Source: a virus. Taken from it: a DNA stretch of 64,000 nt. The notes below the pieces were generated by a model, which worked only from the letters and a program-made list of their open reading frames with translations, did no database searches and had not been told where the DNA came from. Both the position numbers and the translations under genes were made by a program. Location of the stretch: the IMG/VR virus record IMGVR_UViG_3300022750_000002, positions 2,314 to 66,313 of that record. One strand, written 5' to 3'. The number at the start of each line of letters is the position of its first letter. Position 1 is the first letter of the stretch. Shown piece by piece: positions 11,034 through 60,050 of the stretch.

Positions 11034-11121
11034 GGAAAGTTAAACACAGAGGTTGCTGTGTCGCTGTTTGCTAAACAGTTGGTTCATTAGATTGGATGGG
11101 TTTCGAATACTCAACTTTCCG
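11034..11121 (+). tRNA. trnS: tRNA-Ser (GCT)
   Basis: GGAAAGT/ACTTTCC; GCTGT-TTGCTAA-ACAGT; long variable arm; G73. Confidence 0.88.
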
Positions 11122-11128
11122 CAAAAAT

Positions 11129-11211
11129 GGTAGATACCGCTTATTGGTAAGCAGACAGTCTTGAAAACTGTTGGGGCGTGAAAACGCAGGGTTCGATTCC
11201 TATATCTACCG
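11129..11211 (+). tRNA. trnS: tRNA-Ser (TGA)
   Basis: GGTAGAT/ATCTACC; ACAGT-CTTGAAA-ACTGT; long variable arm; G73. Confidence 0.88.
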
Positions 11212-11216
11212 CACAT

Positions 11217-11300
11217 CCTTTAGCGCTAACGTTGGAGTGTTAGGACTGTCTGTAAAACAGTTGTCGAAAGACTTAGTAGGTTCTAATCCTACCTATAGGA
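11217..11300 (+). tRNA. trnY: tRNA-Tyr (GTA)
   Basis: CCTTTAG/CTATAGG (one mismatch); ACTGT-CTGTAAA-ACAGT; variable arm GTC-GAAA-GAC. Confidence 0.88.
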
Positions 11301-59913: not shown

Positions 59914-59950
59914 AAAAAACGGTAGATACCTCATCCAAGAATATCTACCG
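59914..59950 (-). terminator. Intrinsic terminator
   Basis: ACGGTAGATA/TATCTACCGT perfect 10-bp stem plus T-tract on the minus strand. Confidence 0.75.
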
Positions 59951-60010
59951 TATCTAAATTAACGCATCTCAATGAATGAACACTGATTACAAGGCTCTCA
60001 CCCCTTGTAG

Positions 60011-60050
60011 AGATGGATGCCGAGTCGAACGGCTTTATCCACTTCCATCT
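60011..60050 (-). ncRNA. tRNA-like minihelix (acceptor stem plus T-arm, no D or anticodon arm)
   Basis: AGATGGA/TCCATCT 7 bp; GCCG-TTCGACT-CGGC. Confidence 0.55.

Follow-up and report, generated by a model that had tools for sequence, protein, structure and literature searches.

The 41-nt tRNA-like element at the end of the DUF1064 gene of an uncultured phage is best explained as an internal-deletion derivative of a gene for a tRNA-Leu scaffold RNA, probably still processed, a reading to which we give a probability of roughly 0.6. As judged by sequence comparison, the element is not a new RNA family, and is instead a one-off, cut-down copy of a class of RNAs built on a tRNA-Leu scaffold. Related phages carry a full-length, tRNA-Leu-shaped RNA at the same site, and a conserved structured module of about 95 nt, ending in an intrinsic terminator, follows directly downstream.

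Results

The window (the 64,000-nt stretch of DNA that was analysed) derives from a complete 73,024-bp genome of an uncultured phage in IMG/VR, with 127-bp direct terminal repeats and a G+C content of 34.7%. DNA and protein searches of cultured-phage records returned no close relative of this phage. The complete 73-kb genome has no match to a tyrosine-type integrase (PF00589), and no RNA ligase gene was found in it. The element lies on the minus strand, between the DUF1064 gene (60661-60050, minus strand; an ORF of 203 aa; Pfam PF06356, E = 4e-12) and an ORF of 56 aa that starts with ATG and matches no family (59887-59720, minus strand). Position 60050 is both the last base of the DUF1064 TAA stop codon and the first base of the element.

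Sequence inspection, scans, shuffles and folds all bear on the tRNA-like minihelix (60050-60010, minus strand), and its parts agree with those that an earlier, sequence-only reading had described. Its 5′ strand, AGATGGA (60050-60044), forms seven Watson-Crick pairs with the 3′ strand, TCCATCT (60017-60011), to give an acceptor-like stem, followed by a discriminator C at 60010. Only 9 nt separate the acceptor stem from the T arm, a linker that includes the D-arm remnant, AGTGGATAA (60043-60035). The T arm, in tRNA-like spacing, reads A-GCCG / TTCGACT / CGGC-A (60034-60018), with the paired and looped core at 60033-60019 and the loop at 60029-60023. Its stem consists of four G-C pairs, and the fifth position (60034 with 60018, corresponding to tRNA 49-65) is an A·A mismatch, despite which the acceptor/T stack counts 12 layers, as in tRNA. 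U54, U55, C56, a purine at 57, A58 and the G53-C61 pair (G60030-C60022) are all in place in the T loop. The 12-layer stack and T loop that define an RNase P or RNase Z substrate are therefore both contained in the sequence. The 3′ RCCA that favours bacterial RNase P is absent, the 3′ side reading C-UACAAGG.

For the 41-mer, RNAfold slightly favours an alternative register (-11.8 vs -10.7 kcal/mol), where the linker contributes GUGGAU (60042-60037) to a pairing with AUCCAU; both registers retain a helix that stacks on the T arm. The folding z is only -1.7 for the 41-mer alone and -3.5 for the 151-nt stretch. We scanned the genome for a T loop, a T stem of at least 4 bp and a 7-bp acceptor stem, and recovered the phage tRNAs and the minihelix. 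The number of short-linker matches expected per shuffled genome is 0.2 if G·U pairs are allowed and 0.008 if all pairs are Watson-Crick, as observed here. The minihelix is not due to chance.

Canonical tRNA tests gave no ARAGORN call and no RF00005 match at E <= 10 locally or E <= 1 genome-wide. Around the element, no Rfam match reached the gathering score of any family, the best nearby one being Lnt, on the terminator, with 28 bits against a cut-off of 55. P1 C4 and P4 CI are phage antisense RNAs matured by RNase P, and kinship with them had been suggested; we found no Rfam match to C4 or any other family, and their architecture is unlike that of the window element. YrlA / Y RNA-like RNA (RF02553) has no match in the window and reaches 20.9 bits against 69 in the relative L002; it ends in a Ro-binding stem, whereas the window element ends at its acceptor stem.

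What occupies this site in related phages? Relatives were gathered via DUF1064 protein homologues (44-75% identity), and the encoding contigs were compared. In L007 and L002 (DUF1064 identity to the window of 73% and 75%), a tRNA-like gene begins 8 and 19 nt, respectively, past the DUF1064 stop; in L097 (69%; ENA ERZ27228600, k141_87002) the same gene starts, GATGGGTAAGTGGCGGAATTGGTAGAC, shortly before the contig end. The L007 and L002 elements are 131-132 nt long and score 32.8 and 37 bits with the Rfam tRNA model (cut-off 29). Both have a 7-bp acceptor stem, a tRNA-Leu-type D arm, GCGR-AANNGGTAGA-CGC, and a canonical T arm, with an insert of 73-74 nt where the tRNA model has a 15-position anticodon arm. 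This insert has no match in IMG/VR or GTDB genomes and is covered by no Rfam family, and the L007 version has no copy anywhere in the window phage genome. ARAGORN calls the L002/L007 element only as an intron-containing tRNA, with conflicting anticodons. We rejected the insert as an intron because the ARAGORN intron calls disagree between copies and across the class, and because no 3′ anticodon-stem strand exists.

The L002 and L007 RNAs differ at 15 of 133 positions. Six of these differences make up three compensatory pairs (6-67, 49-65 and one in the insert hairpin), one turns a C-G into a U·G, and the remainder lie in loops, so that no helix is broken; the main part of the insert differs at 2 of 57 positions. 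On this comparative evidence, the parent gene is a real RNA under structural selection.

Blastn aligns L007 with the window at 83% identity through DUF1064 to 60050, gives no alignment over the element and resumes at 97% identity over 60013-59902 (112 nt). As the alignment breaks only at the element, the minihelix occupies the exact slot of the larger gene. Residual homology remains inside the slot: GATGGAAGTGGATAAAG in the window aligns with GAACAAGTGGCGAAAG in L007 and GATGGGTAAGTGGCGGAAT in L097. The aligned stretch runs from the 5′ acceptor strand through U8-G9 and the 5′ strand of the D stem into the first part of the D loop, after which the window continues with the T stem; only GTGGATAAAG is left of the D arm, where L007 has GTGGCGAAAGTGGTAGACGC. 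The 3′ strand of the window, ATCCATC, could also pair with GATGGGT of L097.

Exact and near-exact searches of IMG/VR with the minihelix and its flanks found no further copy. A 21-mer search of JGI metagenomes gave five matches, all on unrelated contigs with a G+C content of 50-71%, of which two fall within the T arm of one genuine tRNA-Met; the five matches are chance. The minihelix is thus known from one copy, in the window phage, across IMG/VR and the JGI metagenomes searched. The idea of a dedicated, standalone element has to give way here, as no other copy was found and both synteny and residual sequence point to a deletion derivative of the larger gene. Our scan of 1.47 Mb of other phage loci did turn up one further short-linker minihelix, of 50 nt (L204:4054-4103), in an unrelated phage with 16 tRNA genes. 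It is composed of GACGATA, a 19-nt linker with TTGG, the T arm GTTGG-TTCGAAA-CCGAC and TATCGTC, and a small hairpin follows directly.

The full-length RNAs at this site belong to a very large class. We searched IMG/VR with the pattern GGCGRAANNGGTAGACGC (tRNA-Leu D arm)-N55-85-GGTTCGANTCC (T arm), which matches at least 114 contigs; in 93 of the matches listed, 6 or more of the 7 acceptor pairs are in register, and 79 are unique; the ARAGORN anticodon assignments are scattered and inconsistent. The interval between D arm and T arm is about 36 nt in a normal tRNA-Leu. Many class contigs share the acceptor AGTCAGG / CCTGACT yet bear unrelated inserts. Conversely, L044:3288-3406 and L190:5917-6015 hold the same insert of about 70 nt on the acceptors AGCGCAG / CTGCGCT and AGTCAGG / CCTGACT, respectively. 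Since one insert occurs on different acceptors and one acceptor carries unrelated inserts, inserts and scaffold frames appear to be exchanged between members.

Set beside this class, the minihelix has a 7-bp acceptor stem and a T arm with the GTTCRANYC loop (its T stem being 4 bp plus the A·A), and it sits in the orthologous position, after the DUF1064 stop and before the shared hairpin/terminator module. With the L002, L007 and L097 scaffold RNAs in particular, it has in common the genomic slot, the 7-bp acceptor stem, the TTCGANY T loop, the U8-G9-G10...A14 remnant and the abutting downstream hairpin module. In contrast to them, it has no 3′ half of the D arm, and hence no tRNA-Leu-type D arm GGCGRAANNGGTAGACGC, and none of the folded insert (at least ~55 nt across the class) that replaces the anticodon arm. 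It measures 41 nt instead of ~110-135 nt, and matches neither the class pattern nor the Rfam tRNA model. At discriminator position 73, it carries C where L002 carries A.

The slot downstream of DUF1064 is variable among more relatives. An RNA ligase gene (PF09414) occupies it in L005:3551-4516 and L008:873-1829, and L003 and L004 have a small ORF in place of the tRNA-like gene; the site behaves like a spot at which accessory cargo is swapped. A more distant relative, L106:278-490 (G004:C1:60577-60789), has an intergenic, perfect T arm, GCAGG-TTCGAAT-CCTGC, and a candidate acceptor stem whose strands, ATAAGG / CCTTAT, are separated by about 90 nt. After this T arm come first a hairpin, then a box, GGTTTAATT...GGTTTAGG, and finally a terminal hairpin, a layout as in the window; in Rfam the stretch gives nothing beyond an 18-nt partial T-arm match (E = 0.16).

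The claim that the tRNA-like anatomy heads a structured, terminated RNA stands, in that the ~95 nt downstream are conserved in both sequence and structure. Hairpin 1, described in the sequence-only reading as TACAAGG / CCTTGTA with the loop GGTGAGAG, is present at 60009-59988 (minus strand) and is recovered by folding, with the loop GGUGAGAG. Folding adds a hairpin 2 that was absent from that reading (59986-59969, minus strand; UCAGUG / CAUUGA, loop UUCAUU). Both hairpins are identical in L007, and their loops, GRUGAGAGC and UUCAUU, are kept in L002, where the stem of hairpin 1 has changed to AUAGGG / CCCUAU under a similar loop, GAUGAGAGC, and that of hairpin 2 to UAUAGU / ACUAUG, with four pairs changed on both sides and the loop the same. 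Next comes a conserved single-stranded box (59965-59952, minus strand), which reads GCGUUAAUUUAGAU in the window and GCGTTTARWTTAG in relatives. The intrinsic-terminator hairpin (59951-59914, minus strand; fold z = -4.2) has the ten perfect pairs that had been claimed, ACGGTAGATA / TATCTACCGT at 59951-59919, an apical UGGAU loop and then U6, the T run ending at 59914. In a comparison of five phages, both sides have changed at 8 of 9 pairs of the terminator stem, pairing holds in 91% of cells and the apical UGGAU never varies; none of 500 shuffles reaches the observed covariation score.

A covariance model of the terminator hairpin, R1, finds one strong copy per genome, and the box likewise occurs once in each of G001 and G002 and is not repeated within the window. 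With a single copy in each genome and no enrichment in the window, the box was rejected as a repeated promoter/terminator motif. Inspection by eye also led us to reject a Bacteroidota promoter of the -33/-7 type, there being no -33 element at a suitable distance from the box. Box and terminator hairpin are also found in L003 and L004/G001, without any tRNA-like element. The copy in G002 lies upstream of an endolysin gene and not beside DUF1064: at L101:764-810 (G002:C1:42263-42309), a box, AGAGCGTTTAGTTTAG, and a hairpin, AAAGGATG / CATCCTTT, with a T run stand 55 nt upstream of a gene for an endolysin with amidase and peptidoglycan-binding parts. In all three phages with the present module version (window, L007 and L002), 1-2 nt separate the tRNA-like element from hairpin 1. 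Over the ~95 nt downstream of the element, identity to L007 is 97%, versus 83% for the neighbouring gene. Being conserved, covarying and single-copy, the module is, by these comparisons, more than a generic terminator. We found no target for the box or the loop within the phage genome; the sole exact 10-mer complement (55896-55887) was rejected, as it lies inside an ORF, out of frame with the start, and one such match is about what chance would give.

Discussion

How could a 41-nt minihelix have arisen in the slot of a 132-nt RNA? An internal deletion is favoured because the window retains the 5′ strand, a D-arm remnant, the T arm and the 3′ strand. The parent would have been an RNA of ~132 nt after the DUF1064 stop, built of acceptor, D and T arms, its anticodon arm replaced by an insert of 73-74 nt. 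A single deletion in an L097-type allele, starting in the D loop and reaching the 5′ edge of the T stem, would have taken out the entire insert together with the 3′ half of the D arm. Both acceptor strands and the T arm would have survived, as would U8-G9 with a mutated remnant of the D stem (GTGGATAAAG), and these parts could still build a 12-layer stack of acceptor and T arm. Against this origin, L007 and L002 have other acceptor and T-stem sequences than the window; the direct parent would be a different allele, closest to L097. The proposed deletion would predict that an L097-type gene ends in ...GCCGTTCGACTCGGC-A(C/T)CCATC.

The relic is probably still cut by the tRNA-trimming enzymes RNase P and RNase Z, because these two enzymes and the CCA-adding enzyme need no more of a tRNA than its acceptor/T-arm minihelix. 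Previous work has established that all three act on such minihelices (PMC3714273). The tRNA genes of the window phage encode no CCA, so that an endonuclease such as RNase Z presumably generates their 3′ ends before CCA is attached. The relic would be transcribed within the 3′ UTR of the DUF1064 mRNA, with seemingly no room for a promoter of its own. Cuts would be expected at ~60051/60050, the 5′ border, and after the discriminator at 60010. They would free an RNA of ~95 nt, from hairpin 1 to the terminator, and leave the mRNA without its 3′ hairpin, in the manner of a t-element. Several features speak against efficient processing, namely the competing register, the 4-bp T stem with its A·A, the missing 3′ CCA and the stop-codon overlap; owing to this overlap, the 5′ strand would be melted by ribosomes as they terminate.

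Parts of this scheme are known from other systems. In plant mitochondria, tRNA-like t-elements mark mRNA ends; as would be the case in the window, they are tRNA-like structures in untranslated regions of mRNAs at which RNase P and RNase Z cleavage creates transcript ends (PMC1920247). The ends of t-element RNAs have been mapped, whereas the cleavage in the window is a prediction, and the window belongs to a phage genome with a bacterial host. Model minihelix substrates share with the window element the coaxial stack of 7 + 5 layers capped by a canonical T loop (PMC3714273 and references therein). They are designed, whereas the window minihelix is natural, its linker forming a bulge of 9 nt, with an A·A at 49-65 and no 3′ RCCA. 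The 3′ trailer of an E. coli tRNA operon, 3′ETS-leuZ, is described in a preprint as an sRNA sponge (bioRxiv 10.1101/2021.04.25.441314). The common arrangement is a tRNA or tRNA-like gene with a structured trailer directly behind it that extends to the terminator of the operon; 3′ETS-leuZ is released by RNase E and has a sponge function, for which the window trailer is at most a candidate. Partial tRNA fragments resemble the window element in being partial, tRNA-derived sequences that result from rearrangement. They usually stem from integration sites or CRISPR activity and keep one gene end, in contrast to the window element, in which both ends are kept and the middle is lost, in a genome with no PF00589 integrase gene. 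An attP-type tRNA fragment was rejected on the same grounds, with no PF00589 in the complete genome and both acceptor strands present.

Was the short form itself selected? It is possible, if unlikely, that the minihelix is a minimal processing signal, a phage 't-element' that sets the 5′ end of the conserved ~95-nt 3′ RNA, the latter acting as a small RNA or sponge, and that frees the DUF1064 mRNA of its terminator hairpin. Every one of the 11 pairs is Watson-Crick, the 12-layer spacing and T-loop consensus are intact, a tRNA-like element stands within 1-2 nt of hairpin 1 in the window, L007 and L002, and the covarying 3′ module is better conserved than the neighbouring gene (97% vs 83%). Precedents are the t-elements (PMC1920247) and the 3′ETS-leuZ sponge, released from a tRNA operon (bioRxiv 10.1101/2021.04.25.441314). 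However, a recent deletion in a structured gene would leave perfect helices without selection, the short form is known in a single instance, L003 and L004 keep the box and terminator without a tRNA-like element, and the search for a box or loop target in the phage genome found none. We regard it as doubtful, in the same vein, that the minihelix was retained by a phage of Bacteroidota type as a naturally minimised tRNA 'punctuation mark' at which host RNase P and RNase Z release a regulatory RNA of ~95 nt. The released RNA, single-copy and conserved, would consist of the two hairpins, the GCGUUUARWUUAG box and the terminator with its invariant UGGAU loop, and would have a regulatory target of its own.

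An opposite outcome, in which the relic is inert, its fold forming poorly in vivo and going unprocessed, appears improbable to us. The competing register is slightly more stable, the z of the 41-mer is only -1.7, the 5′ strand overlaps the stop codon and the T stem is limited to 4 bp by the A·A at its fifth position, all of which are consistent with an inert relic; against it, end-processing enzymes accept minihelices with a T stem of 4-5 bp (PMC3714273), and either register stacks a helix on the T arm. The sequence-only reading had also raised a decoy, and a decoy or binding site for a tRNA-directed host enzyme (a defence nuclease, modification enzyme or synthetase) would fit a parent class that retains the tRNA elbow and acceptor and drops the anticodon. 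The RNA ligase (PF09414) that holds the slot in other relatives may hint at a theme of tRNA damage. The minihelix itself, however, has no D arm and hence no elbow, no anticodon loop, the usual target of anticodon nucleases, and no CCA end, and the window shows no link to a defence or counter-defence gene, making this role very improbable. A deletion derivative that is probably still processed remains our preferred reading.

By itself, the element is a one-off remnant that matters little; its value comes from its context. It suggests that anticodon-less, tRNA-Leu-shaped phage RNAs can shed the insert and D arm and retain the half that is read by end-processing enzymes. Within the group to which the window phage belongs, the scaffold stands at an mRNA end, flush against a conserved structured trailer. 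Three natural variants, the full scaffold, the minihelix and the arrangement with no tRNA-like element, allow a simple comparison of the scaffold as a processing handle. If the minihelix did act as a punctuation mark, the tRNA body of the parent class would mainly be a handle for the processing and stability of the attached RNA.

Finally, the tRNA cluster of the window (11034-11300, plus strand) includes three class II (long-arm) tRNA-like genes that were overlooked by ARAGORN, so that it comprises about 8 genes and not 5. The tRNA-like gene at 11034-11120 (plus strand) has the acceptor GGAAAGT / ACTTTCC, and its anticodon loop reads GCU (Ser); the one at ~11213-11300 (plus strand) has the loop CUGUAAA, giving GUA (Tyr), and the T loop TTCTAAT. 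The third, at 11129-11210 (plus strand), has the anticodon UGA (Ser) and scores 27.5 bits with the Rfam tRNA model and 37.2 bits with tRNA-Sec, each under its cut-off. The acceptor and discriminator of this tRNA-Ser(UGA)-like gene are identical to the terminator stem CGGTAGATA / TATCTACCG (59920-59950, minus strand), and the 9-mer TATCTACCG has only these two sites in the genome. The terminator stem of G001 matches none of the G001 tRNAs, and a general rule was therefore rejected; the identity in the window is probably a coincidence.
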